Shown here: one piece after another, positions 11,485 to 64,000 of the stretch
How the letters are laid out: every line of letters begins with the position of its first letter
How positions within the stretch are numbered: the stretch's first letter is position 1
Program-made: the position numbers and the translations under genes
Origin: Eubacteriales bacterium
GTDB lineage: Bacteria > Bacillota > Clostridia > Oscillospirales > SIG627
Length of the DNA: 64,000 nt
Assembly: GCA_045541915.1 (NCBI GenBank)
Contig: JAZQJZ010000007.1
Span: forward strand, 32,781 to 96,780
Direction: 5' to 3'
The notes under the pieces: generated by a model
The model's input: the letters and a program-made list of their open reading frames with translations, nothing else
Told to the model about the DNA's origin: nothing
Databases searched by the model: none

Positions 11485-12795
11485 ATGTTCGGACAAAAAA
11501 GAAAAAAGCAAATCCCGGAAAGAAGCTTCTTTTTGGGCGAAATGGAATCCCGGGAAGCCGGCAATATGCCCTTTTCCGATGAAGATGCCTTCCCTCTCAA
11601 AGAAGAAACAGGAGATGCCTTGACGCTAAAAGCAGAAAAGGAGATTTCCCCAAAGAAAACGGAGCCTGAAAAAGTCGCCGGTGAGAAAAATGCCAAAAAG
11701 CACCGTCATGCGCTAAGAAACATTCCCAATGAAACAAAAGGAAAAAATGTTGCCTCCCCGGAAATCAAGCCCGAAAAAAAGCGCAAACCGTTTCCGAAAA
11801 AGGCAAAACGGGATGTAAAAAAAGACCCGGAGCCAAGCGAGACTTACCGCTCCCTGTTCCCCATGGGCGAAGCGGAGATCAAGGCTTCTCTAGAGGGAAT
11901 GTACGGCGTTTACTCCGATCCGGAAAAAAACAAAAAGAAGACCCTTGGCGCCTTTGACTATGTGCGCTACGGGATCCTCTTTGTTTGCATATTCGGTTTT
12001 TTGACGGCATCGTTTTTTGTGTTCCGCAAGCTCTACGACTATTACCGGGCTTATGTGGTATATTCCGGTCTGCAGGAAATGGTTTCGGAAAAGGACCGCT
12101 TTGCCGATGAATACTTGAAAAAAGCCCTGGTCTCGGTCGAAACCCTTACACCGGCCGACATTCTGGCAGGCAAAACCCATTCAGACAGCGCCGGAAACTC
12201 TACCTTTACCAGTGAGCAGGAGACGCTGGTGGGAAAAATCGCCCAGTTGAAAAAGATCAACGCCGACACTGCCGGCTGGATCAAGATCGAGGGAACGGTG
12301 GTGAATTATCCCATCGTTTGGTCCTCCAAGCGAAACTATTATCTGCACCGGGATTTCTACGGCAAAACCCTTTCCGGCGGCGCGATTTTCATCGATCCGA
12401 GAAATTCCAGTAACATTCCCCAAAATCGCAACACGGTCATTTACGGGCACAATATGTCCGACGGCAGTATGTTTGCCTCCGTTCACGATTTTGCCAGCGC
12501 ATCGGTGTTTTACTCGGCCACCATCGAAATTGCCACTTCTGACGGAATCTATATTTACGAACCCTTTTCCGTTCACGAATCCAATGCCTTTGACAATTAT
12601 TTTGAAACGGATTTTGTTTCCGATGTGGACTTTATCAATTTCTGTGAGCAGATGGCATTCATTTCCCTCTATGAAACGGAGCACACCTTCAACAAAAACA
12701 GTCAGATCATTACCCTGTCCACCTGTGATAACAACGAGCACTCCACCGACCGTCGCTTTGCGGTTCACGCAGTTTTAAGCAAGGTTATACGATAA
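11485..12795 (+). CDS. srtB: Class B sortase with long basic N-terminal extension
   Basis: VIYGHNM (His), ITLSTCDNN (TLxTC Cys), RRFAVHA (Arg). TM at aa ~160-180, preceded by ~155 Lys/Glu/Pro-rich residues. GGAGGA RBS. Confidence 0.85.
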   Translation: MFGQKRKKQIPERSFFLGEMESREAGNMPFSDEDAFPLKEETGDALTLKAEKEISPKKTEPEKVAGEKNAKKHRHALRNIPNETKGKNVASPEIKPEKKRKPFPKKAKRDVKKDPEPSETYRSLFPMGEAEIKASLEGMYGVYSDPEKNKKKTLGAFDYVRYGILFVCIFGFLTASFFVFRKLYDYYRAYVVYSGLQEMVSEKDRFADEYLKKALVSVETLTPADILAGKTHSDSAGNSTFTSEQETLVGKIAQLKKINADTAGWIKIEGTVVNYPIVWSSKRNYYLHRDFYGKTLSGGAIFIDPRNSSNIPQNRNTVIYGHNMSDGSMFASVHDFASASVFYSATIEIATSDGIYIYEPFSVHESNAFDNYFETDFVSDVDFINFCEQMAFISLYETEHTFNKNSQIITLSTCDNNEHSTDRRFAVHAVLSKVIR

Positions 12796-19222: not shown

Positions 19223-19918
19223 ATGACCATGTTTACAGAAGATGTAGAAAATATGTGCGTTGTGGCCAAAGGTCCCAAGCACGGTCCCGCTCCCATTCCC
19301 GAAGAAGGCAGATGGGTAAAGGCTTATGATGTGACTGACATTTCCGGTCTTTCACACGGTATCGGCTGGTGCGCACCTCAGCAAGGTATGTGCAAGCTGA
19401 CTCTTAACGTTAAAAAGGGTATCATCGAAGAAGCTCTGGTGGAAACCAGCGGCTGCTCCGGTATGACCCACTCCGCTGCGATGGCAGCTGAAATTCTCCA
19501 GGGCAAGACCATTCTGGAAGCTCTGAACACCGACCTTGTTTGTGATGCCATCAACGTTGCCATGCGCGAGATCTTCCTCCAGCTGGTTTATGGCCGCACC
19601 CAGACCGCATTCTCCGAAGACGGTCTTCCCATCGGTTCCACTCTGGACGACCTGGGCAAGGGTCTGCGTAGCCAGGTTGGTACCATTTTCGCTACCAATG
19701 AAAAGGGTGTTCGTTACCTGGAAATGGCAGAAGGCTACATTCTCTCCCTGGGTCTGGACGAAGACAATGAAATCATTGGCTATAAGTTCGTTCACCTCGG
19801 AAAAATGATGGAAGCAATCCGTCACGGCAAGGATCCCAAAGAAGCTTACGAGAGCAATGTGAAGACCTACGGCAGATACGAAGCCGCAGTGAAGTACATT
19901 GATCCCCGTGAAGAATAA
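19223..19918 (+). CDS. NifU/IscU N-terminal-like Fe-S scaffold domain protein
   Basis: GWCAPQQGMC, ETSGCSGM and LVCDA Cys landmarks, followed by a ~110-aa C-terminal extension. Confidence 0.6.
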   Translation: MTMFTEDVENMCVVAKGPKHGPAPIPEEGRWVKAYDVTDISGLSHGIGWCAPQQGMCKLTLNVKKGIIEEALVETSGCSGMTHSAAMAAEILQGKTILEALNTDLVCDAINVAMREIFLQLVYGRTQTAFSEDGLPIGSTLDDLGKGLRSQVGTIFATNEKGVRYLEMAEGYILSLGLDEDNEIIGYKFVHLGKMMEAIRHGKDPKEAYESNVKTYGRYEAAVKYIDPREE

Positions 19919-19930
19919 GGAGGCATAACG

Positions 19931-20932
19931 ATGGTTAAGTTTGAAGGTTACGAAAGAAGAATTGGAAAAATCAACGAGTGCCTCAAAGAATACGGCATCG
20001 CTTCTCTGGAAGAAGCACAGAAGATCTGTCTGGATCTGGGTGTCGATGTTGACGCACTGGTAAAGGGCGTGCAGCCCATCGCATTTGAAAACGCTTCCTG
20101 GGCATACACCCTGGGCGCTGCCATTGCAGTGAAAAAGGGCGTGAAGAGTGCCGCTGAAGCAGCTGAGGCCATCGGTATCGGTCTGCAGGCATTCTGTATC
20201 CACGGTTCCGTTGCCGAAACCAGAGATGTAGGTCTCGGTCACGGTAATCTGGCCGCTATGCTTCTCCGTGAAGAGACCAAGTGCTTCTGCTTCTTGGCAG
20301 GTCACGAGTCCTTCGCAGCAGCAGAAGGCGCCATCGGTATTGCAAAGACCGCAAACAAGGTTCGTAAAGAGCCCCTTCAGATCATCCTGAACGGTCTGGG
20401 CAAGGACGCCGCTCACATCATCTCCAGAATCAACGGCTTCACCTATGTGCAGACCGAGTTCGATTTCACCGAGAACAAGCTGAACATCATCAAGACCAAG
20501 GCTTATTCCGACGGCGAAAGAGCAAAGGTTCGTTGCTACGGTTCCAATGACGTTCTGGAAGGTGTTGCCATCATGCAGCACGAGTCCGTTGACGTATCCA
20601 TCACCGGTAACTCCACCAACCCCACCAGATTCCAGCACCCCGTTGCCGGAACCTATAAGAAGTGGGCCATCGAAAACGGCAAGAAGTACTTCTCCGTTGC
20701 ATCCGGTGGCGGTACCGGCCGTACCCTGCATCCCGATAACATGGCTGCAGGCCCCGCTTCCTACGGTATGACCGATACCATGGGTAGAATGCACGGCGAC
20801 GCTCAGTTTGCCGGTTCTTCCTCCGTTCCCGCTCACGTGGAAATGATGGGTCTGATCGGCATGGGTAACAACCCCATGGTTGGTGCCACTGTTGCCGTAG
20901 CCGTAGAAATCTCTATGGCTCTCAACAAGTAA
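19931..20932 (+). CDS. GGGtGRT family protein (uncharacterised conserved family)
   Basis: Contains the eponymous motif ASGGGTGRTLHPDN. 333 aa. Confidence 0.85.
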   Translation: MVKFEGYERRIGKINECLKEYGIASLEEAQKICLDLGVDVDALVKGVQPIAFENASWAYTLGAAIAVKKGVKSAAEAAEAIGIGLQAFCIHGSVAETRDVGLGHGNLAAMLLREETKCFCFLAGHESFAAAEGAIGIAKTANKVRKEPLQIILNGLGKDAAHIISRINGFTYVQTEFDFTENKLNIIKTKAYSDGERAKVRCYGSNDVLEGVAIMQHESVDVSITGNSTNPTRFQHPVAGTYKKWAIENGKKYFSVASGGGTGRTLHPDNMAAGPASYGMTDTMGRMHGDAQFAGSSSVPAHVEMMGLIGMGNNPMVGATVAVAVEISMALNK

Positions 20933-23806: not shown

Positions 23807-25339
23807 ATGAAAGAGATCGTAATGCCTTCTTTTGTCCAAAATATCCAGGAAAACCGGATCAATGAAAGCGCCCGGATTTTCGTGTTTTCGGATCAAACGG
23901 AAGAGGGATTTTCCGCCTACTGTACTCGATTGGAAAAAAATGGCTATACAAAAAAAGAAGAAAGACGCGGCTCTCTTTACCGCTACGCCTCCTTTCAAAA
24001 GGAATCCTCCTCCCTCTTTTTGAATTTCTTTTCCAACATCAGGGAAATGACCCTGGTGCAAGAAGAAAACTCACCTTATTTTTCCTACCGAGATGTTTGT
24101 GGCGAGGTTTGCACGGTGCCGCAGATCACCCAGCTTGCCCTTTCGGATTTTGGAATGTCTTATGTGATCGGTCTTTCTGACGGACGCTTGATGGTGATTG
24201 ACGGCGGCAGAGAATTCCCCCAGGATGCCGAAAACCTCTATCAAACGCTTTGTTCCGTCTCCCCTTTGTCAAAGCCGGTGATCGCTGCCTGGATCCTCAC
24301 CCATCCCCATAGCGATCACTTTCATTGCTTCCATGTATTTATGAAGCGTTTCGGCGAGCAGATTACATTGGAAAAGGTCTTTCTGAATTTTCCCGATGCG
24401 GATGATCTTGACCATTTCCCCGCACTTGCGCCTTCAAGTCCGGAAGAAGAAGCCCTTTCCCCTCAGGCAAACATTCCCCTAATGTGGAATGAGATCAAAA
24501 AAGCCGGTGCAGAGGTTTATACGCCCCATACCGGTCAGAGCTACCGGGTAGGAGATGCCCTCATTGAAATTCTTGGTGCAATGGATGATATTCTCCACCG
24601 CTCTCAGATCATCAATGCCTCCTCTCTGGTCTTTCGGATGGAACTGGGAGGACAGGTGATCCTCTGGACAGGGGATGTTTCCTCTTCCTTCAGCCGCCTG
24701 GGTGAACGATATGGAAACGATCTGAAAGCTGACATTCTGCAGGTTCCGCATCACGGCTTTCAGTCCGGAAAGGCAGCCGGAGAGATTCTGCTGTATGATC
24801 ACGTCCGCCCCCAAGTTTGCCTACTTCCCGTGGCAGACCACGAAGCCTACGTGAGCTTTTGCCCCTATCGGAAAGGAACAAAATATCTTCTGACACACCC
24901 GGATGTGAAAGAAGTGATCACGGGAACGCCTCAGCGCACCATCCCTCTGCCCTATACCCCGCCTACCGAGAAAAAAGCAGAGATTGAACGAAACCTGGAA
25001 AACGGAAAGAAAAAGGCAGGGGCCCAGACCTGGATCTTTTCCGACCTTTCTACCGCTTCCCCGGAGGACCTGGTCTTCACCTTGCTGAACACCACCTATG
25101 TTGCCGCCAATGTGCGCATTGATCTGTATTTTGATTCCATTAAAAAAAGAATGAACTGGCAGACCACAACAGGGCGGGTCTCCTTTATCCCCCTCTCCCT
25201 GGAGCAGTCTTTCCGCGAGGCAACGGGTAAGGATCTGCCGAAAAACGAAGCCTTTTCCATTCGCTTCACCTCGGATATTCCCATCGTCGTTTCAAACAAA
25301 AAGAATAAACCCGCTTTTTATTCCTCTGAAAACCTTTGA
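23807..25339 (+). CDS. MBL-fold metallo-hydrolase (ComEC-type lactamase_B domain) with N-terminal unknown domain
   Basis: ILTHPHSDHFHCF (HxHxDH) and LQVPHHGF. Confidence 0.8.
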   Translation: MKEIVMPSFVQNIQENRINESARIFVFSDQTEEGFSAYCTRLEKNGYTKKEERRGSLYRYASFQKESSSLFLNFFSNIREMTLVQEENSPYFSYRDVCGEVCTVPQITQLALSDFGMSYVIGLSDGRLMVIDGGREFPQDAENLYQTLCSVSPLSKPVIAAWILTHPHSDHFHCFHVFMKRFGEQITLEKVFLNFPDADDLDHFPALAPSSPEEEALSPQANIPLMWNEIKKAGAEVYTPHTGQSYRVGDALIEILGAMDDILHRSQIINASSLVFRMELGGQVILWTGDVSSSFSRLGERYGNDLKADILQVPHHGFQSGKAAGEILLYDHVRPQVCLLPVADHEAYVSFCPYRKGTKYLLTHPDVKEVITGTPQRTIPLPYTPPTEKKAEIERNLENGKKKAGAQTWIFSDLSTASPEDLVFTLLNTTYVAANVRIDLYFDSIKKRMNWQTTTGRVSFIPLSLEQSFREATGKDLPKNEAFSIRFTSDIPIVVSNKKNKPAFYSSENL

Positions 25340-25367: not shown

Positions 25368-25402
25368 CAAAAAAAGAGACGCAAATTGCGTCTCTTTTTT
25401 CT
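25368..25402. terminator. Bidirectional rho-independent terminator
   Basis: A-tract-GAGACGC-AAATT-GCGTCTC-T-tract, between convergent genes. Confidence 0.75.
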
Positions 25403-25408
25403 TTTTTG

Positions 25409-28400
25409 TTATGCTTTCCACGGAGCGGAAAGACCTTCGATCTTTTCGCCGTTGTAAAGCTGGCAGGAGAAGTGGATCTTCTCGCCGGCAACGGACTGCA
25501 TCTCTTCCCAGGGAAGAATCTTTGCCAGAGGCATTTCCTTAATGAAGAAGTCAGGCGCACGATAAACAGTGCGATACACTTCCTCGCCCTTGGCGTCAGT
25601 GATGGTAACAAACACATCGGAAATGGGGAAGTTGGACTTGAGGGATGCCTCTTTCAGGTTCTTCTCTTGGGAGATTTCAACCTTGCCATCCTCCACTTCC
25701 TTGGTGCCGATCAATTCTGCAAAGGTAAAGGGAATGTAAAAGGTATCAAACAGCTGCTTGAAGGTATATTTCATATCCACCATACCCTGAGCGCAGTAGT
25801 GGGTTCCGTCAGGATGCTTGCGGATATTGTTGCCCACACCGGTGGAATAGCAAACCTGCTCGGTCATAAGCGTATAGCTCTTATCACCGTCAATGAAGCC
25901 GTTTTCATCGCGAACTACAGTAGGGTAAGCAGAGTTCATTCTCACGTGACCGGTGCTGACCACACCGTCAGCAGGAAGCATTGCCGCATAGGATTCGTAC
26001 ATCACCTGCTCGCCGTTATCTTTGCAGACAGACTTCTGGTTGTACTTTTCAGCATTGCGGAAGCTCTTGAACTCTTCGGGGTACTTATAAGGTCCAACCG
26101 GAAGGAAGCCCTGCGCCTTGCACATACCGAAGGTATAGCTGAAGTTTGCGGAATTGACCACACGGCTCCAGGAAATGCTGGCACCGCCGGAGCAGGCATT
26201 TCCGAAGATTCTTGCATTCTGGATACATTCGCTTGTGGCGTCCAGAACACCCGTTTCGGGATCGCAGATCTCTGCCATACGGTAAAGGTTACCGGATCCG
26301 CAGGTCACATAGGGAAGACCGCCGTGAACCATACCGGCTGGCATATGTCTTTCTTTTTTCTGACTTCCGATGGTATAGGTCACATTTTCGCTGAGCAGAT
26401 GGGGGAATTCACACTGGAGCTTCATATAATCCAAGCAGATCTGACGGAGACGGTATTCACGCATACCGGGCTTGGCCACGGGAATCTGCTTCAGCTGCTG
26501 TACCAGGCTCTTACCGGGAATGGTTGTGGAGGTGCCGCCCTTGCCGGGGAGAATGGCAACCTTAAATCCGCGGTAGCCCTTGAGGAGTTCACCATTGTAA
26601 AGCTGGAACTGCATATTCAAGGTATAGGGAGCCTCGAAGATCTCCAGTCTCTTCATATCTTCTCTGGGGAGCATATCGCCAAGTTTTGCCTTGTAGGTAG
26701 CAAAGGAGATGGAACGCCATACGCCCTCTGCCATCACCTTGCCGTGAACGTCGGTCACCTTGTAGAAGGCATCGGACAAGGGATAGTTGAAGCTAAATTC
26801 CACTTCATTCAATTCATCTGCGTTAAAGCACTTCTTGTTGGAGTTGGGAACGGCATAGGCCTGTTTCACCGGTGCCTGACCCAAGAATTCCTTGAAGGTG
26901 AAGGGCAGATAGTTGGTGTCATACAGTTTCTTAAAGGGGATCTTCACATCCACACAGCCCTCAACCACATAGTAGTCGCCGTTTTTCTGCTGTCTGACGT
27001 GGTACCAGTCAACGGTGATCATACCCTGATCGCTGAAGACTGCATAGCTCTTGTTGCCGTCAATGGTTCCGTCAGGATTGCGAACCACATGGGAAAGACC
27101 CGTTGCCATACGGATATGGCCGGGGCAGTTCAGACCGTCACCGGGCTGAAGCAGAGCGTAGGATTCAAACATCACCTGCTCGCCGTTTTCCTTACATACA
27201 GTCTTGGCTGTATACTTTTCCGGATTGTGGAAGCTTCTGATGTCCTTGCGATAGGTATAAGGGCCAACGGGAATGACGCCATTTGCCTGGGTCATTTCAT
27301 GGGTCCATCCAAGACGGACAGAGGTGATACATCTTGCCCAGGAGGTAGCACATCCGCCAGAGCAGGCATTACCGAAGATTCTCTTGTTTCTGCCAAACTC
27401 CTTCATATTCACAATACCGGTTTTGGGATCCATATGCTCGGCCCAACGGTAAAGGCTGCTGCCGCCTATATTTACATAAGGAATACCGGCGTGAACCTCG
27501 TCCTTTTTCAGACGAACCTTATAGTCCTGTCTTTCCACCCAGTATTCAAAGTCTTCCTCCAGCTTATAGGGGAAAGAAACCTGCAGACGCATAAAGTCTA
27601 CACACATTTTTCTCAACTGCTCGGGAGCCATTCCTTCTTTTGCAATGGGAATTGCTTTGAGCTTTTCATGGAGGGTCAGATCCTCGGGCTGCAATTCGCT
27701 GGCGATCTTACCGGGGATGAGCGTTCCCTTGAAGCCGGACCAGCCACTCTTGGTCACACCGTTGAGCAGACGGATCTTCAGTTCCAGGGTGCTTCTGCCG
27801 TTCTGGAACAGCTTCAGATCCTCCAACTTCAGAATATCCTTCAGTGCCAGAGCATACTTGTGATGGGTGGGGCAACGGTAAACATCCTCGTAAAGAAGGG
27901 TGCCGTCCCGATCCGTTACAGTGATGAATATATCGGAGAAGGGATAGTTTGCCTGAATCTCGATCTCTTTTAAGTGCTCGGTGGTGAAAATGGTGCGGAG
28001 AATGTTCTCGCCGGTGGCGATCTCCTTCATTCGGATCACAGGCTTTGCATAAGAAGCCTCACCGGTGAATTCCTTGAAGGTAAAGGGAATATAGTGCTTT
28101 TCGAACAAGGTTTTAAAGTCTACCTTGATGTCAATGCCACCCTGAACATAAACGGGCGTTCCGTCTGCCTGGAGGGTATCGGTGTGATAGAGGTATTCCT
28201 TTTCGCCGTTTTCCTTTTCCTTCACCTCGGTCTGGTATGGCGTTGCCACCTGATCCATATACAGGATATAGCTCTTTTCGCCGTCAATTTCGCCATTTTC
28301 ATCCCGTTCCACATGAACCTGGGAAACCATTCTCACGTGGCCGCGGCTATGAACACCGTCAGCAGGCTTCAAAGCGGCGAAGGATTCGTACATCACATCT

Positions 28401-28978
28401 CTTCCCATTTCGTTTCCGATGTTATGGGAGGTATAATCATACTTTCTTTCCGGATCTTCCGCCAAGGTGTAAGGCGCCTTGATAAACAAAGGAAGCTCCT
28501 TCATATAGGTATAAGGACCAACATTCTGATAGCCCATCAACTGGGTCATGCCGGAGGTGTAGGTCATCTTGGCAGAAGAGACGCATCTTGCCCAAGCAAT
28601 GCAAGCTGCACCGGAGCAAGCGTTACCGAAAATCTGGGGATTTTCCTTCAGCTTGGAAATATCAAGAACACCGGTTTCTTCATCGTAATATTCCATTGCG
28701 CGATAAAGGTTTCCGGAGCCCAGATTCACATAGGGAAGACCGGCATAAACCGTATCGGTGGAAAGCTTCACCGGGCGCTTTGCGCTCTTGATGGTATATT
28801 CAAAATCTTCACTGGGAACCCAGCGGAAGGAAAGCTGCGCTCTCATAAAATCAAGACAAATCTGACGCATTTCCTCCGGGGTAGAGGAAGCCTTAGCGGT
28901 GGGAAGTGCCTTCAGCTTTTCCTGGCTAAAGGGATCCTGAACTGCGGGATACTGTTTTTTCGTTGTGGTATTCGCCAT
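25409..28978 (-). CDS. Tri-modular 1189-aa protein; each module has an NlpC/P60-like Cys/His signature (function unknown)
   Basis: Three homologous modules at aa ~20-425, ~438-815 and ~827-1189. Each repeats IFGNACSG (C121/C539/C929) and LxPxDG..GH(V/I)RM (H214/H621/H1011). AAAGGAG RBS. No signal peptide or TM. Confidence 0.85.
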   Translation of the reverse strand: MANTTTKKQYPAVQDPFSQEKLKALPTAKASSTPEEMRQICLDFMRAQLSFRWVPSEDFEYTIKSAKRPVKLSTDTVYAGLPYVNLGSGNLYRAMEYYDEETGVLDISKLKENPQIFGNACSGAACIAWARCVSSAKMTYTSGMTQLMGYQNVGPYTYMKELPLFIKAPYTLAEDPERKYDYTSHNIGNEMGRDVMYESFAALKPADGVHSRGHVRMVSQVHVERDENGEIDGEKSYILYMDQVATPYQTEVKEKENGEKEYLYHTDTLQADGTPVYVQGGIDIKVDFKTLFEKHYIPFTFKEFTGEASYAKPVIRMKEIATGENILRTIFTTEHLKEIEIQANYPFSDIFITVTDRDGTLLYEDVYRCPTHHKYALALKDILKLEDLKLFQNGRSTLELKIRLLNGVTKSGWSGFKGTLIPGKIASELQPEDLTLHEKLKAIPIAKEGMAPEQLRKMCVDFMRLQVSFPYKLEEDFEYWVERQDYKVRLKKDEVHAGIPYVNIGGSSLYRWAEHMDPKTGIVNMKEFGRNKRIFGNACSGGCATSWARCITSVRLGWTHEMTQANGVIPVGPYTYRKDIRSFHNPEKYTAKTVCKENGEQVMFESYALLQPGDGLNCPGHIRMATGLSHVVRNPDGTIDGNKSYAVFSDQGMITVDWYHVRQQKNGDYYVVEGCVDVKIPFKKLYDTNYLPFTFKEFLGQAPVKQAYAVPNSNKKCFNADELNEVEFSFNYPLSDAFYKVTDVHGKVMAEGVWRSISFATYKAKLGDMLPREDMKRLEIFEAPYTLNMQFQLYNGELLKGYRGFKVAILPGKGGTSTTIPGKSLVQQLKQIPVAKPGMREYRLRQICLDYMKLQCEFPHLLSENVTYTIGSQKKERHMPAGMVHGGLPYVTCGSGNLYRMAEICDPETGVLDATSECIQNARIFGNACSGGASISWSRVVNSANFSYTFGMCKAQGFLPVGPYKYPEEFKSFRNAEKYNQKSVCKDNGEQVMYESYAAMLPADGVVSTGHVRMNSAYPTVVRDENGFIDGDKSYTLMTEQVCYSTGVGNNIRKHPDGTHYCAQGMVDMKYTFKQLFDTFYIPFTFAELIGTKEVEDGKVEISQEKNLKEASLKSNFPISDVFVTITDAKGEEVYRTVYRAPDFFIKEMPLAKILPWEEMQSVAGEKIHFSCQLYNGEKIEGLSAPWKA

Positions 28979-29077
28979 TTCAATTCTCCTTTTTTCAAGT
29001 TGTAATGAAAGTGATTCCGGCTGGTTTCATTCTGCCATTCGACAACTCAAATGTAAATGGACAATTTAATGACAACC

Positions 29078-29142: not shown

Positions 29143-29184
29143 TCCGAAGAAAAGAAAAGAGTCGCGCAAACCATCGCGCGGCTC
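29143..29184 (-). terminator. Terminator downstream of the queG-like gene
   Basis: Minus strand reads GAGCCGCGC-loop-GCGCGACTC (1 mismatch) followed by TTTTCTTTTCTT. Confidence 0.6.
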
Positions 29185-30022: not shown

Positions 30023-31393
30023 TTATTTTTTGAAAAAGCGAAGATAACTGTCATCCCTCTTTTCTTTTCCGAAAAATTCGGCGCGGAGATCCCGTTCCTT
30101 TTTCTTTGGAATCTTTTCTTCTCCCGGCAAAAACGGAAGGGAGGACAGGGCGTATCGCAGAGCGTCCGGCGCGTGGGTATATTCATGGGGAGTCAGAGCG
30201 GCATCCTCGGTTTTGATGGGATCAAAGGTCAGGCGTGGAAGGGTTCGAAGAAGGTTTTTACACTGGGGAAAGATCCCCAAAAACGCCTTCTCTTCCCGTT
30301 CGGCACGCAAAAATTCTCTCATTCTCCGCCAACCGGGGATTCTGGCATTGTCTGCCGGAACCAGGCCCCGAACGCCCCCTTTTTTTAAGATATCAAAGCC
30401 GCTTTTTCCCCCATCCTGGCGGCGTCCGGCAAGGTCAGGAGAAGCGGTAATATAGCGCACCTCTTCCCCGGCGATGGTCTCTCGGATCTTTTCCGCCGCC
30501 TCCGACAGCACCAGATCCGGCTCATACAGCTCCCGATACACCACAACACAGCTTCGATCCGGAGGATAAGCCAAAAGCAAAAATGCGGTCATATCCAAAC
30601 CGTAATCCAGCGCGCCGAAGCGGATCCAGTTCTCTGGCACGGAAAAGGGGCTGATCTCGTGCTTTCTTCGGTCAAATTCCGTGAAATACTGTCCCTCAAA
30701 GGCATCCCAGTCGCCGTCCAGCATGGCCCGACGGCGAAGGGGAGGCAGACTTTCCAGGGTTCGTACATATTCTGGGTTTTCCTTCAGCAAATAGCGGTTG
30801 TCATACACCGTGGAGGGAATGAAAATATAATCCTCCGCCTTTTCCCCCTCCCGGTATTCCCGATCGATAAAAAGCCGTTTTACCCAGGCATGTCCCACAC
30901 CGCCCGGGTTGCAGGTAAAATACATCCGCGGAACAAAGGGCTCCTGTAACAGTCCGGCCAAACGACAGCATTCAGTCATGGCATAGTACTGACTTTCCGT
31001 AAACTGGGTGGCCTCCTCCATTCCGATCACCTCGTACGCCTGTCCCTGATACTGGAGCGCATCCCCCTCCTCGCTCAAATATCCCAATTTGATCCGAGAT
31101 CCGCCCGGAAACAAAAATTCCTTGGTGGAATCCTTATAGGAAGCGATCCCATAAAGCCATCTTCGAAGCGGATTGATGTGGTTTTCACGTAATTCGGGGA
31201 AGGTGCGGCGCAGCAGCAGGATCTGGATCCCCGGATAGCGCAGGGCAAGCAGCACAAGCTTTGCACGCATGGCAAAGCTCTTTCCCCCTCCTCTGGCGCC
31301 GCCATAGGCAATGCGTCTGGCCCCGGCTCGAAAAAAGGCCTCCTGGGGCGGAAAGGGATGAAGTGTAGATAAAAATTTTTCAATTGCATTCAT
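30023..31393 (-). CDS. Phage terminase large subunit (orphan)
   Basis: Walker A GGARGGGKS, Walker B-like YEVIGMEEA, FTCNPGGVGHAWV, and nuclease-domain GALDYG...HAPDALRY. Start chosen at MNAIEKF (31393). No SD is visible. Confidence 0.8.
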   Translation of the reverse strand: MNAIEKFLSTLHPFPPQEAFFRAGARRIAYGGARGGGKSFAMRAKLVLLALRYPGIQILLLRRTFPELRENHINPLRRWLYGIASYKDSTKEFLFPGGSRIKLGYLSEEGDALQYQGQAYEVIGMEEATQFTESQYYAMTECCRLAGLLQEPFVPRMYFTCNPGGVGHAWVKRLFIDREYREGEKAEDYIFIPSTVYDNRYLLKENPEYVRTLESLPPLRRRAMLDGDWDAFEGQYFTEFDRRKHEISPFSVPENWIRFGALDYGLDMTAFLLLAYPPDRSCVVVYRELYEPDLVLSEAAEKIRETIAGEEVRYITASPDLAGRRQDGGKSGFDILKKGGVRGLVPADNARIPGWRRMREFLRAEREEKAFLGIFPQCKNLLRTLPRLTFDPIKTEDAALTPHEYTHAPDALRYALSSLPFLPGEEKIPKKKERDLRAEFFGKEKRDDSYLRFFKK

Positions 31394-31399
31394 TTTTAC

Positions 31400-31428
31400 T
31401 TGACAAATCGCGAAAAAAAGAATAAGAT
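31400..31428 (+). promoter_or_regulatory. Promoter of the TPP-riboswitch/thiT operon
   Basis: TTGACA (31400-31405)-17 nt-TAAGAT (31423-31428). The -35 lies 7 nt from the terL start codon on the other strand. Confidence 0.55.
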
Positions 31429-31444
31429 AATGGCACGCACAAGA

Positions 31445-31532
31445 GCGGAAAACAGGGGTGCTACGGCTGAGACGCATGAAAATGCGAACCCTTTAACCTG
31501 AGATGGATAATACCGGCGTAGGGAGTTTTTGA
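31445..31532 (+). promoter_or_regulatory. TPP (THI-box) riboswitch aptamer
   Basis: AGGGGUGC..GCUGAGA..ACCCUUUAACCUGAGAUGGAUAAUACCGGCGUAGGGAG matches the THI-element core. P1 pairs AAAAC with GUUUU. Confidence 0.9.
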
Positions 31533-31550
31533 GAGAACCAGATTCGAGTT

Positions 31551-32270: not shown

Positions 32271-32879
32271 ATGACTCCCATCTGTCGCATCGTCGGCGCA
32301 GGCGATTTTTCTCCCTCCCTACTTCCCGAATCAAGGCCGGGGGATTTTCTCATCGCCGCAGACGCCGGATTTTCCCGTCTGCACTCTGCCGGTATCCAGC
32401 CGGATCTTTACATCGGTGACGGTGACTCCTTGGGCTACACGCCCCAGGGGGTCGGCGCCGTGGTTCTCCCCAAGGTCAAAGATGATACGGATACCCTGGC
32501 CGCGATCAAAGAGGGGCTTTCCCGAGGCTTTTTGCGGTTTGAGCTGTACGGTGCGCTGGGTGGAGACCGTTTCTCCCATTCCATTGCCAACCTGCAAACC
32601 CTTTTCTATTTGGCAAACCACGGGGCAACAGGGACCATTGTGGATTCCAAATGCACTGTGTCCCTTCTGACACCCGGAACCTATACCCTGGATCTTTCCG
32701 GAGGGTATTTTTCCCTTTTTGCTTTGGATTTGCCGGGTACCGTTTCCATTGAAAATGCCAAATACCCACTGAAAAGTACCACCATTTCCCCTTATTTTCC
32801 CATCGGCGTGAGCAACGAGGGAGAAAAGGAAACCTGTATCACGGTGGAAAAAGGAAATCTCTTTTTGATCCGGGAGTGA
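32271..32879 (+). CDS. thiN: Thiamine pyrophosphokinase
   Basis: IVGAGDF, IAADAG, YIGDGDS, KDDTDT, GALGGDRFSH, plus a C-terminal B1-binding-like half. Confidence 0.85.
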   Translation: MTPICRIVGAGDFSPSLLPESRPGDFLIAADAGFSRLHSAGIQPDLYIGDGDSLGYTPQGVGAVVLPKVKDDTDTLAAIKEGLSRGFLRFELYGALGGDRFSHSIANLQTLFYLANHGATGTIVDSKCTVSLLTPGTYTLDLSGGYFSLFALDLPGTVSIENAKYPLKSTTISPYFPIGVSNEGEKETCITVEKGNLFLIRE

Positions 32880-36367: not shown

Positions 36368-37744
36368 TTATTTTCGCCAAATCATTGTATTTTTTTGGAA
36401 TAATATTCGAGGAAAAACGGTTAAAATGAAAAAAGATAAAAAGAAAAAAACAACAAGAATGGAAAGAACCAAAAGCCACGTTTGCCACCTGTTTTCCGAA
36501 GTATTTTCTTTCCTCGGCGCCAAGGAGGTGCTCGTCGGTGCCGGGTTCATAACCTCCATCTCTTCCCTTTCCTCCGGAACAAGATGAGGGGATGAGAGAA
36601 TAGGCAAAGAGGCAAATGCCGAAACACTTCCCCTTGCCGGATCCAGGCAAATTTCTTCCGGCAACGCTTCATACACCGGGATCAAAAAAGTAAGTTTTCC
36701 ATTCAGCTGACCCGTTTCCTCGTAAATTTGGTAAAGCAGATCGGCTTCGGTTTTGGCGGCACCGATGTTTTGCATATACTGCCCCCAGAAATTCCGGATT
36801 TGCCCCTCCGGGGTGAGAGAGCGGATATCCACATTCCACTTTTGCAGATAAAGGGTATTCTGATGGGTAGACACATACTCCCGCGCAATTTTTTCTGTGC
36901 CTCCCCAAAGACCCTTTTCCAGTGTATTCCAACCGGAGAGCCTTGCCTTCTCCGCACCGCTTCGATAAACCTCAAAGGCTCCGTTGCCGGAAGCAGATAC
37001 ATTGAACGGATTGTAGTATCCGTTTAGGGAAAGAAGCTCTTTTGCATCACAGCCGCCTTTTGGGGAAAGCACCGAGCGATCCCCCTCCCACTGGGTTCCT
37101 TCTTGATACCATTGGGAAAGAACCTCTCCTGCCAAACCGGAAAGCAGCACGTTTCCCTCTCTCCCTTGCTCCTGGCGCAAGCGCACTGCCAAAAAACGGG
37201 GATCGATTCCAAATTCCTCCCCCAAGAAAAGAAGTGTTTGGGAAGAGACCTCCCCTTCCAAGGCAGTTTGGGAAAGAATTTTATCAAGAACCTCCGGGGG
37301 AATGGGAGTGGTGTATGACAGATCCAAAAATTGAAACACGCCACTTTCCGAAAGATGAGACCGGGGATCCAAAAAATAGGCCACCGCTTCTCTGGATGCC
37401 CGATGATATCCGGTATCGCTTGTTTCTCCGCCGGGGTCCCAATAGGCGCTATAATCACCGTCACCGGAAACCAGACTCTGCTGAGCAGAGTCCGTTTCCC
37501 GATCCAAAACGTATCCGAAGGTATATTCCTGTCCCTTCTCCCGGGAAAGCTCGGTGATCTTCAGCGCCCTCCATTCCCATTCCGGATGCATCAAGCTCAA
37601 GGCGCAAAGCGGCTCCCAATAGGATTGGCAAAATCCCTTTTCCTGCAAGGACAAGCAAATCTCACAGTTTGTTTGGGCCTCTACGGGAAAAAGCAGTAAC
37701 AAGCTCCCCATCAGAATCCCAAAGCACAGTTTTATCATTCTCAT
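36368..37744 (-). CDS. Exported, C-terminally membrane-anchored protein with GH73-like glucosaminidase signature
   Basis: Signal peptide MRMIKLCFGILMGSLLLLFPVEA. HQNTLYLQKWNVD resembles the QNTLYKMRWN motif of N-acetylglucosaminidases. C-terminal TM. Confidence 0.5.
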   Translation of the reverse strand: MRMIKLCFGILMGSLLLLFPVEAQTNCEICLSLQEKGFCQSYWEPLCALSLMHPEWEWRALKITELSREKGQEYTFGYVLDRETDSAQQSLVSGDGDYSAYWDPGGETSDTGYHRASREAVAYFLDPRSHLSESGVFQFLDLSYTTPIPPEVLDKILSQTALEGEVSSQTLLFLGEEFGIDPRFLAVRLRQEQGREGNVLLSGLAGEVLSQWYQEGTQWEGDRSVLSPKGGCDAKELLSLNGYYNPFNVSASGNGAFEVYRSGAEKARLSGWNTLEKGLWGGTEKIAREYVSTHQNTLYLQKWNVDIRSLTPEGQIRNFWGQYMQNIGAAKTEADLLYQIYEETGQLNGKLTFLIPVYEALPEEICLDPARGSVSAFASLPILSSPHLVPEEREEMEVMNPAPTSTSLAPRKENTSENRWQTWLLVLSILVVFFFLSFFILTVFPRILFQKNTMIWRK

Positions 37745-60258: not shown

Positions 60259-63200
60259 TTATGCTGCCTGATAGTTGACACAAGCCTGAACCAGTTCAGC
60301 CAGAGCATCTACTTTTGCTTTTTCAGCTGCATCGTCCGAATCAGCGTATTCGTTTTGTACATACTCGGTCAGACCCTTGATGCTGGTATAGGTTTCAGCA
60401 GCACAGGTGCCGAGAATGCCGGTATACTCGTCAGCAACGTTGCCGTCGATGTAAATACCAACAAACAGGTTTTCATTGGGATTCTCAAGGCTGACATAGA
60501 AATCAACCGTGATATCGGTGCCTTCAACATTTACAGTGTAATAGTAATCAGCAAGTTCGTTCCAAGCGCCATCAACCTTTGCATAGAGGGAGATCTTATC
60601 TGCCAAGCTTGCATCGGTAATGGTACCGGAGAAGCGAATACCAACTGCATCGCCCATCAGCATGGACACAGTGTTGAACTTCAGGCCGAGACCGTTTGCG
60701 GAATAGAACTGAGGATCAGCAGCATCGTGCTTCACAAAGTCAGCTGCAAAATCATACTTCTTCTCCACACCGGCACAAACGGATGCGCCGTAGTTGTAAA
60801 TGGCCTTAAAGAGATTAGCCGCATCTCCTTCAGAGTTCTGGTCAAGACCGAGATCGCAGATCTCGAAGATGGTGAGCTCGTTGCAGAATGCGCTTCCGGC
60901 AAAGGTAACAGCCTTATCGAAGTGATCGGGAGCCACTGCCTTCATTTGGAACTTGTAATAGCCGCCGTCTGCCACGGAATTTTCATTAATCACGCCGGTG
61001 CCAAGCACATAAAGGTTGGAGCCGTCATCGCTCAAATCCATGGTGAGAGTGAACTTCAGTGCGCCGATCTTCTTTTCGCCATCTACGATGATCTCGTTGC
61101 GAGAAGCAGCGTAAGTTTCGTAATCAGTTTCGGAGATCCAAACGTTGAGAATGATTCTGGCATCCACATCCATTACAACGCTGAAGTTCATAGAAGCGCC
61201 GGTGTAAGTGATCACGTCAACTTCATTTTCTTCGCCAACGGTAACGGTGGAATCTGCCTTCTTCAGGTAAACGCCGTTGATGCCAGGAGTAACAGGAACC
61301 ACCTTATCAACGCCATCCTCGGTCAGGAAGGTAACATAGGTCTTGTCGATGGTCCAGCCGTCTTGATTTGCGGAGTAGATTCTCACATCGCCAACTTCGG
61401 TTACTTTGTTCTCATCCAGAACATCAGTCACAGAAGTGGGAACGCCGGTGAGGAAGGATCCGCGGCCGCTGTCTTCATCAATTGCGGAATCGAGAAGGGT
61501 AATGTCGCCAATCAGATAGATATTGATATAGTCATAATCTAAGGCATGGTCTCTCTTGGTGCCTTCCCAAATGGGCTTGTTAAAGGTACCAGCCTTAATA
61601 TAGACGTTGATCTCAGCCTCCTGGGTACCGTTAATATGGCTTCCGGCAAGGCCGACCTGGCTTGCTTTTCTCGTGGAGAATACCGGAATTTCATCGCCAT
61701 ACTTATCAACGTAAACCGTAACAGATCCCGTACCGCCTTTGGTGCCTAAAGCAACAAATTCATGGCCGGTGTAACCACCGTTAAAGTAAATAACGTGGTT
61801 ACCGGTAATTTCGCTGCGGCTGCCCCAGAAGGTGCCGTTAAATTCGCAGCTGTTAACGGTGGTAACAATGTCACCGGTGAATTCGCCGTCTCTGGTCACG
61901 TCATAGTTGCCCGCCACGTAGCAATTCGTCATGGTATTCACTACATCACCGGTCAAGTAAGCTGCACGACCGAGAACGAAGATAGAATAACCACTTTGAC
62001 CATCAGCCGACGAGCCGTTGTAATTAAAGTTGGTATTGGAAATCTCAGACTTCACATTACCCACATTGCCTTTAACACTGTTCAAGCCGTAATAAATTAC
62101 GTTGAAGTTGGAGTTTGTAATATTATTGGTAAGAGCGTAGATGGGATTGCCCTCTCCATCTTCGGTGGCTTCTGCGGTAAGAGCAATCACGCCGGTGCCG
62201 CGGAAGTTACCGTGTTTCACGGTAGTTTCGGTTGTAACTTCATCGCCAGTATCCGGATCGGTCGTCTGGTTGAAGGTCAAACCGTCAATGTTATTGGTGA
62301 TCTTCACATCAACACCTGCTTTGGAACCGCCGTAGAACTCGGTGCCGTTCAGAATGACATTGGTAATGTTGTTGGTAATGTCATACTTATATCCCTGACC
62401 ATTGGTATGGGCACCGCCATAGAAGGTTCCAATGTTAAGGGTAGCAGAGCCTTCTTCGGCGGATGCAGGATCCTTGCAAAGGTGGTTGGTAACCGTTACA
62501 GTAGGTGCAGGATCGGCAGCTTTGTTATTATTACGGGCACCACCGTAGAACTCGGTGATGTTACCGCCGTAGATGTAGTTGTTGATGCTTTCAGGGACGA
62601 GGGTTGATTCACCATTGTAGCCGCAAAATGTAGCAATGTCACCACCATAAATATAGTTTTCAATGGGAGCGTCATTGTTGTGCATTCCATACAAAACGCC
62701 GATATCGCCCGCATAGAACTTATTGACCACTTTTCCGGTGGTAGAGTAAGAACCGTAGAAGGTACCGATCGTGGGAACTCGACCCTCATAGGCCTGAACG
62801 ATTGTTGTTGTCGTTCCACCAACATTACTCTGACCGGATCCCCAAATACGTCCCGCAAAGTTAGAAGCGCCTTGAACGGTCAGATTTACATCGCCGGTGA
62901 TTTCTGAGTGGCTTGCATAATATCTAGAGTTTACATAAGAATCGGTAATGGTTGTCGTAGCATCGCCCATAACTTTTTTGCTGGAGGTTCCGTAGCAACC
63001 TGCGCTGCTACCGGTATTACCGATCTTGACACCGTCGAGAACTACCTCAACGTTACCGGCAACAGTAGCACCACTTCCGGTGAATTGTCCATTCAAAACA
63101 ACATTAGAGCCAGTAACTTTGCCGTCAGCAATCGTAGGAGTTCCTTTGAATTCGGTTCTCACCGCAGTATCAGTGCCATTATTAACAGTAGCACCCAGCG

Positions 63201-64000
63201 CAGCAAAGTTACCTGTAAGAGTAATGGAGCCTTCTTGACCCTCAGCAAGGCCGATAATATTGGTTACAGATTTGCATCCCTTTCTGTTGCCAACAAATTT
63301 ACCGGTAATATCACCGCGAATAATATTGGTAATATGATCAGCAGTGAAGGTAGTATCTGCAGCATAAACGGTGAATTCACCGTCTCCTTCAACTGTAATA
63401 TCAGAAAAGATTTCGGTGGTAAGGCCATTCAGCTCATATTCTGCGGGAATGCTGGCAAGGTATTTATCAGCATCGTAAGTACCGCGAATGACGGTGTGCA
63501 GATTGGAAACACCGGTCGGCAAGGTATAGAAAGCACCTGCCCAGTTTGCAGCGTAGTCATTCTTCAGCGTGGTTACAGCTGAACCTCTGGAAAGGTTGAA
63601 GGTTCCAATTTCGCCGGTTCCGTCGCAAGCAAATACATTATTTACTTCTGCGAGAGTACCAGTGGAGGAGGAACCTGCACCGTAGAAATTGGTAATCGTG
63701 GCACCTTCATAGATGGTGTTGGTGACGGGATAGGTCTGGGCCATGTTTGTGGTACCGCCAAGGCCGTAAAAATTCTTAAGATTCGCGCCTGCATAAACAT
63801 AGTTTTCCACAGGGCCCTTGGAAGCACCGCGGCTTGCGACAAATTGAGATGCTGCACCCGCTGACATATCAGCATAGATATGGTTCTCATTCACTTCAGT
63901 TGCAGAGAAAACGCCGCTGATACCAACGTTATGAACTGTACCGGAGCTATTATTCAGAACGGGTTTTCCATTCACGGTAAGAACTGCTTTACCATAGATG
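60259..64000 (-). CDS. Giant repetitive (predicted beta-helical) surface/adhesin-like protein, N-terminus beyond window edge
   Basis: The frame stays open past the track's GTG at 63975 to position 64000 (...IYGKAVLTVNGKPV), so the protein exceeds 1246 aa. Degenerate repeats NxIYGGxIxxFYGG recur. Gly/Asn/Thr-rich. No LPxTG-type C-terminal signal. Confidence 0.8.
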   Translation of the reverse strand, partial: IYGKAVLTVNGKPVLNNSSGTVHNVGISGVFSATEVNENHIYADMSAGAASQFVASRGASKGPVENYVYAGANLKNFYGLGGTTNMAQTYPVTNTIYEGATITNFYGAGSSSTGTLAEVNNVFACDGTGEIGTFNLSRGSAVTTLKNDYAANWAGAFYTLPTGVSNLHTVIRGTYDADKYLASIPAEYELNGLTTEIFSDITVEGDGEFTVYAADTTFTADHITNIIRGDITGKFVGNRKGCKSVTNIIGLAEGQEGSITLTGNFAALGATVNNGTDTAVRTEFKGTPTIADGKVTGSNVVLNGQFTGSGATVAGNVEVVLDGVKIGNTGSSAGCYGTSSKKVMGDATTTITDSYVNSRYYASHSEITGDVNLTVQGASNFAGRIWGSGQSNVGGTTTTIVQAYEGRVPTIGTFYGSYSTTGKVVNKFYAGDIGVLYGMHNNDAPIENYIYGGDIATFCGYNGESTLVPESINNYIYGGNITEFYGGARNNNKAADPAPTVTVTNHLCKDPASAEEGSATLNIGTFYGGAHTNGQGYKYDITNNITNVILNGTEFYGGSKAGVDVKITNNIDGLTFNQTTDPDTGDEVTTETTVKHGNFRGTGVIALTAEATEDGEGNPIYALTNNITNSNFNVIYYGLNSVKGNVGNVKSEISNTNFNYNGSSADGQSGYSIFVLGRAAYLTGDVVNTMTNCYVAGNYDVTRDGEFTGDIVTTVNSCEFNGTFWGSRSEITGNHVIYFNGGYTGHEFVALGTKGGTGSVTVYVDKYGDEIPVFSTRKASQVGLAGSHINGTQEAEINVYIKAGTFNKPIWEGTKRDHALDYDYINIYLIGDITLLDSAIDEDSGRGSFLTGVPTSVTDVLDENKVTEVGDVRIYSANQDGWTIDKTYVTFLTEDGVDKVVPVTPGINGVYLKKADSTVTVGEENEVDVITYTGASMNFSVVMDVDARIILNVWISETDYETYAASRNEIIVDGEKKIGALKFTLTMDLSDDGSNLYVLGTGVINENSVADGGYYKFQMKAVAPDHFDKAVTFAGSAFCNELTIFEICDLGLDQNSEGDAANLFKAIYNYGASVCAGVEKKYDFAADFVKHDAADPQFYSANGLGLKFNTVSMLMGDAVGIRFSGTITDASLADKISLYAKVDGAWNELADYYYTVNVEGTDITVDFYVSLENPNENLFVGIYIDGNVADEYTGILGTCAAETYTSIKGLTEYVQNEYADSDDAAEKAKVDALAELVQACVNYQAA

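Follow-up and report, generated by a model that had tools for sequence, protein, structure and literature searches.

A leaderless protein of three tandem modules, possible divergent relatives of the NlpC/P60 and CHAP enzymes, in a Clostridia genome

What could a bacterial protein do that repeats one large module three times in a single chain, each copy with its own conserved cysteine and histidine, and that carries no export signal? This question is raised by an open reading frame (ORF) on the minus strand of a 64,000-nucleotide stretch of DNA from an Eubacteriales bacterium (assembly GCA_045541915.1, contig JAZQJZ010000007.1, positions 32,781 to 96,780), hereafter called the window. The ORF occupies positions 25409..28978. 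An upstream extension is ruled out because no earlier start codon lies between its ATG and the preceding stop codon. It is backed by 8 full-length orthologues with 53-64% identity and is a genuine gene. We lean towards the view that every module is catalytically active, as a highly divergent cysteine amidase or peptidase of the papain-like type, and that the window protein is an intracellular three-headed version of it. The modules probably constitute a new and very divergent family, allied to the NlpC/P60/CHAP cluster without being members of PF00877.

Module architecture and conserved residues

The three modules are pairwise 39.5-40.8% identical over 369-410 amino acids (aa), with BLASTP E-values of 1e-103, 6e-88 and 2e-101. 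A hidden Markov model (HMM) sets their boundaries at aa 11-430, 431-819 and 821-1189, near the limits of ~20-425, ~438-815 and ~827-1189 proposed in an initial annotation made from the DNA alone. Each ~390-aa module consists of a ~275-aa alpha/beta N-domain followed by a ~110-aa immunoglobulin (Ig)-like beta-sandwich, arranged as follows.

25409..28978, minus strand: whole ORF, 1189 aa plus stop codon, ATG start, three tandem modules
28049..28948, minus strand: module 1 N-domain (aa 11-310), putatively catalytic, from HMM, BLASTP and motifs
28730-28732, 28616-28618, 28358-28360, 28337-28339 and 28253-28255, minus strand: module 1 Tyr83, Cys121, Asp207, His214 and Asp242
27689..28048, minus strand: module 1 Ig-like beta-sandwich (aa 311-430), from model and Foldseek, with a sub-threshold DUF3244 match at aa 338-382
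26867..27688, minus strand: module 2 N-domain (aa 431-704), modelled alone with a predicted local distance difference test score (pLDDT) of 91.7
27476-27478, 27362-27364, 27137-27139, 27116-27118 and 27029-27031, minus strand: module 2 Tyr501, Cys539, Asp614, His621 and Asp650
26519..26866, minus strand: module 2 Ig-like beta-sandwich (aa 705-820), from model and Foldseek
25694..26518, minus strand: module 3 N-domain (aa 821-1095), from BLASTP, HMM and motifs
26309-26311, 26192-26194, 25967-25969, 25946-25948 and 25859-25861, minus strand: module 3 Tyr890, Cys929, Asp1004, His1011 and Glu1040
25412..25693, minus strand: module 3 Ig-like beta-sandwich (aa 1096-1189), from BLASTP, HMM and Foldseek

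The N-domain of module 1 carries an insertion of ~31 aa that modules 2 and 3 lack. The motif IFGNACSG is found at aa 116, 534 and 924, which gives Cys121 (the TGC codon at nucleotides 28618-28616), Cys539 and Cys929, and GH[VI]RM at aa 213, 620 and 1010, which gives His214, His621 and His1011. The motifs G[LI]PYV, P[AG]DG, [IL]PFTF and N[YF]PxSD occur three times apiece in the 1189-aa protein. All these landmarks lie where the initial annotation had placed them, and the putative active site that it described as triplicated indeed has one Cys and one His strictly conserved per module. Modules at the same position in the orthologues are 60-68% identical, as compared with ~40% among the sister modules of the window protein. 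Since each module is nearer to the same-position module of an orthologue than to its own sisters, the triplication is old. As paralogues of old origin that have kept their positions, the three modules suggest that one polypeptide combines three related specificities. No further copy of the module was found within the 64-kb window besides those of the 1189-aa protein.

Conservation was counted over 108 diverse single-module members of the family, ~30% identical to module 2, and residues are given below in module-2 numbering, to which 430 is added to obtain the full-protein position. Arg26 and Ser214 are present in 108 of 108 sequences, and Tyr71, Cys109, Asp184, His191 and Gln221 in 107 each; Pro70 is found in 102 and Asn107 in 94. 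Position 220 is occupied by Asp (72 sequences), Glu (29) or His (6). Cys109 is directly followed by Ser in 82 members and preceded by Gln in 51, His in 19, Ala in 17 and Asp in 8, and no conserved Trp exists two positions past Tyr71.

The first module has decayed in three orthologues. Cys and His are each replaced by Ser and the Asp by Ala in P0008, Cys and Asp are both replaced by Ala in P0009, and Cys is replaced by Ser in P0007, while Arg26, Asp184, Ser214 and Gln221 are kept in all three. These first modules are full-length pseudo-enzyme modules in otherwise intact three-module proteins. The triad is never lost from modules 2 and 3 of the orthologues, and all three modules of the window protein are intact. 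Because positions 109, 191 and 220 are lost jointly, as a catalytic Cys-His-acid triad would be, we consider that they form a triad-like unit.

The decayed modules also raise the idea that all modules are non-catalytic binding or scaffold units, in which the conserved residues would serve ligand binding only. A module without catalysis is viable, since module 1 has no Cys in these three orthologues and yet remains full length, and DUF1175 provides an example of an inactive, peptidoglycan-binding papain-like family (PMC10318531). Against this, Cys and His are each retained in 107 of the 108 members although the sequences are otherwise only ~30% identical, and neither residue disappears from modules 2 and 3. 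We therefore regard general loss of catalysis as highly improbable and retain the reading of the modules as active enzymes.

Fold of the N-domain and the reaction it may catalyse

The structure of module 2 was predicted with AlphaFold2 (AF2) at a pLDDT of 91.2 and a predicted template modelling score of 0.90. As a Foldseek search with the whole module found only the Ig-like part, the N-terminal 274 residues were modelled separately (pLDDT 91.7). In the AF2 models, DSSP makes Cys109 the first residue of helix 109-117. [A/G]-Asp184 lies just ahead of strand 185-188, strand 191-195 begins with His191, and residue 220 closes strand 215-220, ahead of which a 19-residue hairpin is inserted. In the papain-like core, a helix that bears the Cys N-terminally precedes an antiparallel sheet, in which beta2 carries the His and beta3 a polar residue (PMC10318531). 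The predicted model appears to match this pattern, because it shows the same order of helix-borne Cys, strand-borne His and strand-borne polar residue. It also has, ahead of the His strand, the GD mark that the NlpC/P60/CHAP cluster carries on beta1 (PMC10318531).

The C-terminal part of the module, which had been described as beta-rich, is an Ig-like sandwich in the model. Foldseek matched it to CopC (5icu, E 2.9e-4, probability 1.0), to the DUF3244 structures 4g5a (0.92) and 3d33 (0.89) and also to fn3 domains. The Pfam model DUF3244 (PF11589) reaches 20.5 bits on module 1 (E 4.8e-4), under its 25-bit gathering score, and matches weakly in 7 of the 108 family members. The domain is thus of the same beta-sandwich kind as the DUF3244-type Ig-like accessory domains, but has its own N-Y-P-x-S-D motif and a match below the Pfam threshold. 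An Ig-like domain joined to a papain-like amidase has a precedent in ZoocinA_TRD fused to Amidase_5 (PMC10318531). In the modules studied here, it probably helps substrate holding or selection.

The N-domain was compared with NlpC/P60 proteins (PF00877, MEROPS C40; for example E. coli MepS/Spr and Bacillus YkfC) by profile alignment. With hhalign, the full N-domain aligned to 123 diverse PF00877 proteins at E 0.056 and a probability of 1%. This colinear alignment pairs YgGlPYv with YlGvPYVWGG, GNxCS with GFDCSG, LxPaDG with LqPGDL and GHV with HVG. An insertion-free core of five segments reached a score of 26.4, E 8.1e-4 and a probability of 24%, values that depend on segments picked post hoc, after the first alignment had been seen. 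In the insertion-free alignment, Tyr, Cys, Asp, His and D220 fall opposite the catalytic residues of NlpC/P60, with D220 facing the third-residue His. Among the 120 possible segment orders, the top six by score coincide with the six in which the Tyr, Cys and GD/His segments stay in native order, and decoys (reversed or unrelated) scored 9-13 with E 0.16-0.37. A profile made of MepS only (120 orthologues listed, >=88% identical) gave an irrelevant alignment. When the N-domain model was searched against 350,542 PDB chains with Foldseek, the top two matches were the NlpC/P60 endopeptidases 6sqx_B and 3m1u_A, at E-values of 0.15 and 0.36 that are not significant; an arylamine N-acyltransferase, 8k51, stands at rank 12.

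The module family and NlpC/P60 appear to share the order Tyr, Cys, GD, GHV and polar Asp/Glu/His. Accessory beta-rich domains are frequent in both, and both comprise lipoprotein, secreted and leaderless homologues (PMC2954226, PMC9928106). The differences are substantial. The catalytic domain spans ~275 aa in the module family and ~110-120 aa in NlpC/P60, and only the former has a ~60-aa N-terminal unit of a helix and three strands. Cys and His are 82 residues apart, as against ~51 in NlpC/P60, and a beta-hairpin is inserted between the His strand and that of the third residue. Canonical NlpC/P60 enzymes have an additional, fourth catalytic residue, a Tyr (PMC3142127), which in BcYkfC is Tyr226, 12 residues before the Cys (PMC2954226). 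Tyr71, in G-x-P-Y, is aligned by hhalign to the P-Y of NlpC/P60 but precedes the Cys by 38 residues instead of 12. Further unlike NlpC/P60, the module has no Pfam or significant Foldseek match and no conserved beta5 Arg, and the catalytic module is triplicated.

The CHAP enzymes (PF05257, MEROPS C51) belong to the papain-like cluster in which the modules would probably fall, and resemble them in the sequence Cys, then His, then polar residue, and in the GD motif. Of 133 sequences scanned, 2 matched the CHAP model, both under its 26-bit gathering score and neither from the window protein. The best is module 1 of P0018 (residues 173-221 against profile positions 26-72, 20.8 bits, E 5.4e-4) and the second has an E-value of 0.011. 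These matches span the PGDG..GHV region and leave the stretch around the Cys unmatched.

Several results weigh against a papain-like enzyme of this type. In line with the initial annotation, the N-domain could not be placed in a characterized family: no curated model was found for it in Pfam, NCBIfam, PHROGs or PADLOC. PDB sequence and profile searches were empty, a match to RNase A in the profile search being rejected as a short chance match, 'NGxxxxxSY'. PF00877 gave no match at E up to 10 in the full protein, in 25 N-domains or in the 108 family members. The hhalign score of the full N-domain was equalled or beaten by 20 of 150 block shuffles, the lower E-value comes from the post hoc segments, and none of the NlpC/P60 tests reached conventional significance on unedited data. 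No significant Foldseek neighbour of the N-domain was found in PDB (best E 0.15, template modelling score <=0.22) or in BFVD. In the NlpC/P60/CHAP cluster, 'GD' lies on beta1 and its Asp pairs with an Arg on beta5 (PMC10318531). No conserved Arg, the counterpart of the one on beta5, was found in the strands past residue 221; the invariant arginines are Arg26, in the N-terminal helix, and Arg119, past the Cys helix. Cys, His and Asp/Glu/His are common metal ligands too. Finally, no conserved operon partner hinting at a substrate was found, and the missing signal peptide is the single indication of an intracellular location. The parallel with NlpC/P60 drawn in the initial annotation draws partial support from the motif order, the predicted secondary structure, the colinear alignment and the top Foldseek pair, but none from Pfam matches or significant scores on unedited data. 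The same holds for the model and Foldseek search it had proposed as a check, which yielded a confident model with two NlpC/P60 enzymes at the top and no significant match.

These results give weight to the possibility that the N-domain is not homologous to papain-like enzymes at all, and is a previously unseen fold with either a convergent Cys-His-acid site or a Cys/His/acid metal centre, in a metalloenzyme or a structural role. Such a fold would account for a confident 274-aa model without significant Foldseek neighbour, for the empty profile searches and for an unedited hhalign score no better than that of shuffles. A metal site would explain just as well why position 220 alternates between Asp, Glu and His and why positions 109, 191 and 220 are lost jointly. 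On the other side, four or five motifs share the order and the kinds of secondary-structure element of NlpC/P60, the decoy controls score far lower, and both top Foldseek matches are NlpC/P60 enzymes. In addition, a Cys preceded by Gly-Asn at a helix N-cap is a typical setting for a nucleophile that has an oxyanion hole. We hold a new fold to be unlikely. If true, it would mean a new enzyme class in the lipoprotein arrays and intracellular multi-headed forms of gut Clostridia, with a reaction outside any assigned family.

On the favoured reading, the N-domain would be an NlpC/P60/CHAP-type papain-like fold with heavy embellishments. Cys109, at the helix N-terminus, would act as the nucleophile and His191, on the strand after the [A/G]-Asp184 strand, as the general base, oriented by Asp/Glu/His220 on the next core strand. 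Tyr71 and/or Asn107 may stabilize the transition state or oxyanion. The enzyme would then cleave an amide, peptide or isopeptide bond via a thioester acyl-enzyme; acyl transfer seems less likely. The repeat, the family, the conservation and joint loss of residues, the secondary structure of the model and the lack of an export signal are observed, while the papain-like fold, catalysis, the bond type and an intracellular location are interpretations. Recognition of gamma-D-Glu by NlpC/P60 enzymes involves a Trp two residues past the Tyr, an Asp before the Cys and a Ser after it (PMC2954226). The Trp and the Asp are not conserved in the module family, and because of this the canonical L-Ala-gamma-D-Glu bond is probably not the substrate.

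The same fold and triad could also support transfer chemistry, the protein being an acyltransferase or a transglutaminase-type cross-linker that acts on proteins, lipids or small amines, like LRAT, the arylamine N-acetyltransferases or Bacillus Tgl. The papain-like/NlpC-P60 superfamily does hold hydrolases, phospholipases and acyltransferases with one common triad (PMC3142127), and 8k51 is such a transfer enzyme among the Foldseek matches. The poor conservation of the gamma-D-Glu recognition residues of peptidoglycan-specific NlpC/P60 (PMC2954226) is compatible with this idea, and intracellular protein cross-linking or acylation would fit the leaderless multi-module forms. However, the best motif matches (GxPY, xCSG, PGD and GHV) go to the hydrolase families PF00877 and CHAP, most members are exported lipoproteins, where acyl-CoA (coenzyme A) donors are unavailable, and no acyl-carrier or CoA-related gene is among the conserved neighbours. 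Transfer thus appears quite unlikely to us, and hydrolysis remains the favoured reaction.

The module family and its export

A word-indexed search retrieved 21 relatives, all in metagenome-assembled genomes (MAGs) of Clostridia, and an exhaustive profile search at least 1365 clusters at 50% identity (E <=1e-3), with 716 at E <=1e-30. The hosts of all members traced are uncultured Clostridia, chiefly from the guts of ruminants, and the members whose source records were checked are all named 'hypothetical protein'. A related-locus search with the whole protein matched one GTDB genome. The number of modules varies among homologues from 1 to 4, a variation that the initial annotation had suggested looking for. 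The commonest form has one module and 415-450 aa behind a 50-70-aa leader. Of 168 sequences, 124 have a hydrophobic N-terminus and 80 a lipobox-like Cys. The typical member is thus a single-module exported protein, often a lipoprotein, encoded in tandem arrays of paralogues.

Such arrays were found on three unrelated MAG contigs. One MAG region (L001 1-17888 and L004 1-18370) contains ten single-module lipoprotein genes, one two-module gene and one three-module gene, broken up by genes for AraC, GDSL-hydrolase and flavin adenine dinucleotide-oxidoreductase proteins and by one for a 291-aa unknown protein. Arrays L006 and L007 mix lipoproteins, secreted beta-helix proteins with a C-terminal module and leaderless two-module proteins. 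Within arrays, paralogues are 30-50% identical to one another.

The window protein has no such leader. A hydropathy scan found no signal peptide or transmembrane segment in it: Kyte-Doolittle means over 19 aa peak at 1.12 in the whole protein and at -0.45 inside the first 40 aa. Leaderless two- and three-module forms are rare; all two-module proteins and the three-module proteins of the window type are leaderless. By a heuristic for an N-terminal hydrophobic run, the multi-module proteins P0018, P0109 and P0022 are exported, and the signal peptide of P0018 is also visible in its sequence. When 207 modules are placed in a neighbour-joining tree, the leaderless ones group together, the nearest neighbour being also leaderless for 61 of 71. 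Export status nonetheless switched at least 13 times. A second three-module protein (P0023/P0168) is of independent origin. Leaderless multi-module forms, with two, three or four units, arose more than once. The initial annotation had called the protein cytoplasmic. This suits the leaderless window protein, but because the typical member is exported, it describes a subfamily trait and not a trait of the module.

It could then be argued that all members are hydrolases of the cell wall or of surface polymers, and that the leaderless forms exit non-classically, through lysis, a holin-like release or deposition on spores by the mother cell. Signal peptides or lipoboxes occur in about three quarters of the family, the same module sits at the C-terminus of secreted multi-domain proteins, and leaderless and exported paralogues adjoin within arrays. 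The hosts are Clostridia, and one array adjoins a YunB-like sporulation gene. Against such an exit, the leaderless modules form their own persistent clades, which suggests a stable and distinct compartment, no holin or secretion gene was found beside the window gene, and YkfC offers the precedent of a truly intracellular NlpC/P60 enzyme (PMC9928106). We consider non-classical export improbable and suppose that the window protein probably acts inside the cell. In NlpC/P60, the YkfC subfamily has both homologues with a signal peptide and homologues without a leader, acting outside and inside the cell (PMC2954226, PMC9928106). By analogy, processing of cell-wall-derived or other amide-linked substrates in both compartments would be plausible for the module family.

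Unlike the modules, which have the whole catalytic-plus-Ig unit tripled and no signal peptide in the window protein, the Firmicutes peptidoglycan hydrolases LytF and CwlS are secreted and combine repeated LysM domains with one NlpC/P60 domain. They repeat the binding domain only. What the two systems have in common is a modular build, in which a papain-like catalytic domain stands alongside repeated accessory domains.

The locus and the significance of the family

The gene is flanked by the following signals.

28986..28990, minus strand: Shine-Dalgarno sequence AGGAG, 7 nucleotides (nt) before the ATG, by direct reading of the sequence
29029..29057, minus strand: sigma-70-like promoter candidate (TTTACA, 17 nt, TG-CAGAAT), a consensus match only
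29163..29180, minus strand: terminator-like hairpin 3' of the upstream QueG-like gene, parting the QueG-like transcript from that of the three-module gene
25370..25400, no strand assigned: hairpin with a 14-bp stem and A and T runs at its flanks, between the three-module gene and the convergent gene 23807-25339 (plus strand)

The hairpin at 25370..25400 is likely a bidirectional terminator, common to the three-module gene and the convergent gene. With hairpins on both sides (25370-25400 and 29180-29163), a promoter-like site of its own (29057-29029) and the AGGAG, it is reasonable to read the gene as monocistronic, with its own promoter region and terminator, as had been proposed. Two antisense ORFs lie opposite it on the plus strand, 25406-27973 (855 aa) and 27974-29005 (343 aa). 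Both are most probably shadow ORFs and not genes, since homologues exist for the minus-strand product only.

The convergent neighbour (23807-25339, plus strand) encodes a 510-aa protein of the metallo-beta-lactamase (MBL) fold with a weak C-terminal match to an ASRT-like beta-sandwich. It also has weak PADLOC matches to MBL-type defence components, namely LmuA (E 2e-10), PDC-M48B and RTasMBL. This neighbour is not kept beside the orthologue. The locus of orthologue P0007 keeps the upstream synteny, with thiamine pyrophosphokinase, a terminase-like gene and a QueG-like gene, and has different downstream genes.

Other readings of the locus were considered and rejected. A functional operon with the neighbours does not hold, as the MBL-fold gene runs convergently, the GH39-like gene lies past it without adjoining the three-module gene, and the orthologous locus conserves neither. 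A role in anti-phage defence was discarded, the three-module protein having no PADLOC match. A phage origin, suggested by a terminase-like gene 1 kb away, was rejected because that gene is lone and occupies the same place in the orthologous MAG, and because no phage relatives were found: tblastn gave no relative of the module in 50,697 phage records, in 72,556 plasmids or in viral contigs, and the three-module protein has no PHROG match below E 0.05. The module's place at the C-terminus of secreted beta-helix proteins evokes a polymorphic-toxin domain, but no small immunity-like genes lie between the paralogues and most members are plain lipoproteins.

The lone terminase-like gene (30023-31477, minus strand; L005 5588-6958 in the orthologous MAG) matches the large-subunit models Terminase_3 and Terminase_6N of Pfam at E ~1e-11. 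Its neighbours are the QueG-like 4Fe-4S gene on one side and thiamine genes on the other, and the orthologous MAG has it at the same place in the chromosome. It may be domesticated or a relic; other phage genes were not recognized nearby. A thiamine pyrophosphate (TPP) riboswitch at 31444-31541 on the plus strand (Rfam RF00059, 60.1 bits) precedes a thiamine-transporter-like ORF and thiamine pyrophosphokinase (32271-32879). The terminase-like ORF probably starts further downstream than called, because the riboswitch overlaps its first ~34 nt on the opposite strand. Its product has 484 aa as called in the window and 456 aa in the orthologue.

Elsewhere in the window, a 1238-aa ORF (60259-63975, minus strand) has no Pfam match and shows degenerate 'N-x-x-Y-G-G/ T-x-F-Y-G-G' repeats with a beta-helix-like look. 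It is probably truncated, since its start falls within 25 nt of the window end, and by BLAST it is unlike the module family and its fusion partners. A GGGtGRT-family protein (19223-20932, plus strand; PF14057, E 1e-193), of a family of unknown function, is encoded directly 3' of a NifU-like gene. A 458-aa signal-peptide protein (36368-37744, minus strand) has no Pfam match and is unrelated to the module family. The sortase-domain protein at 11485-12795 (plus strand) is unusually long, with 436 aa, of which the sortase domain takes up residues 266-431 only.

If the favoured reading is true, the modules would represent a sizeable family of putative cysteine hydrolases without an entry in Pfam, NCBIfam or PDB, and the NlpC/P60/CHAP cluster would come to include a catalytic domain of far greater size and with other decorations. 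The practical value of the family would be modest until a substrate is identified; it makes a good candidate both for an entry of its own in Pfam and for screens of gut-microbiome enzymes by activity. The existence of arrays in which at least 10 lipoprotein paralogues have diverged suggests that substrate specificity has diversified on the cell surface. To carry three intact active sites of ancient divergence on one polypeptide would be rare among papain-like enzymes and would offer a clean system in which to ask why catalytic units fuse.

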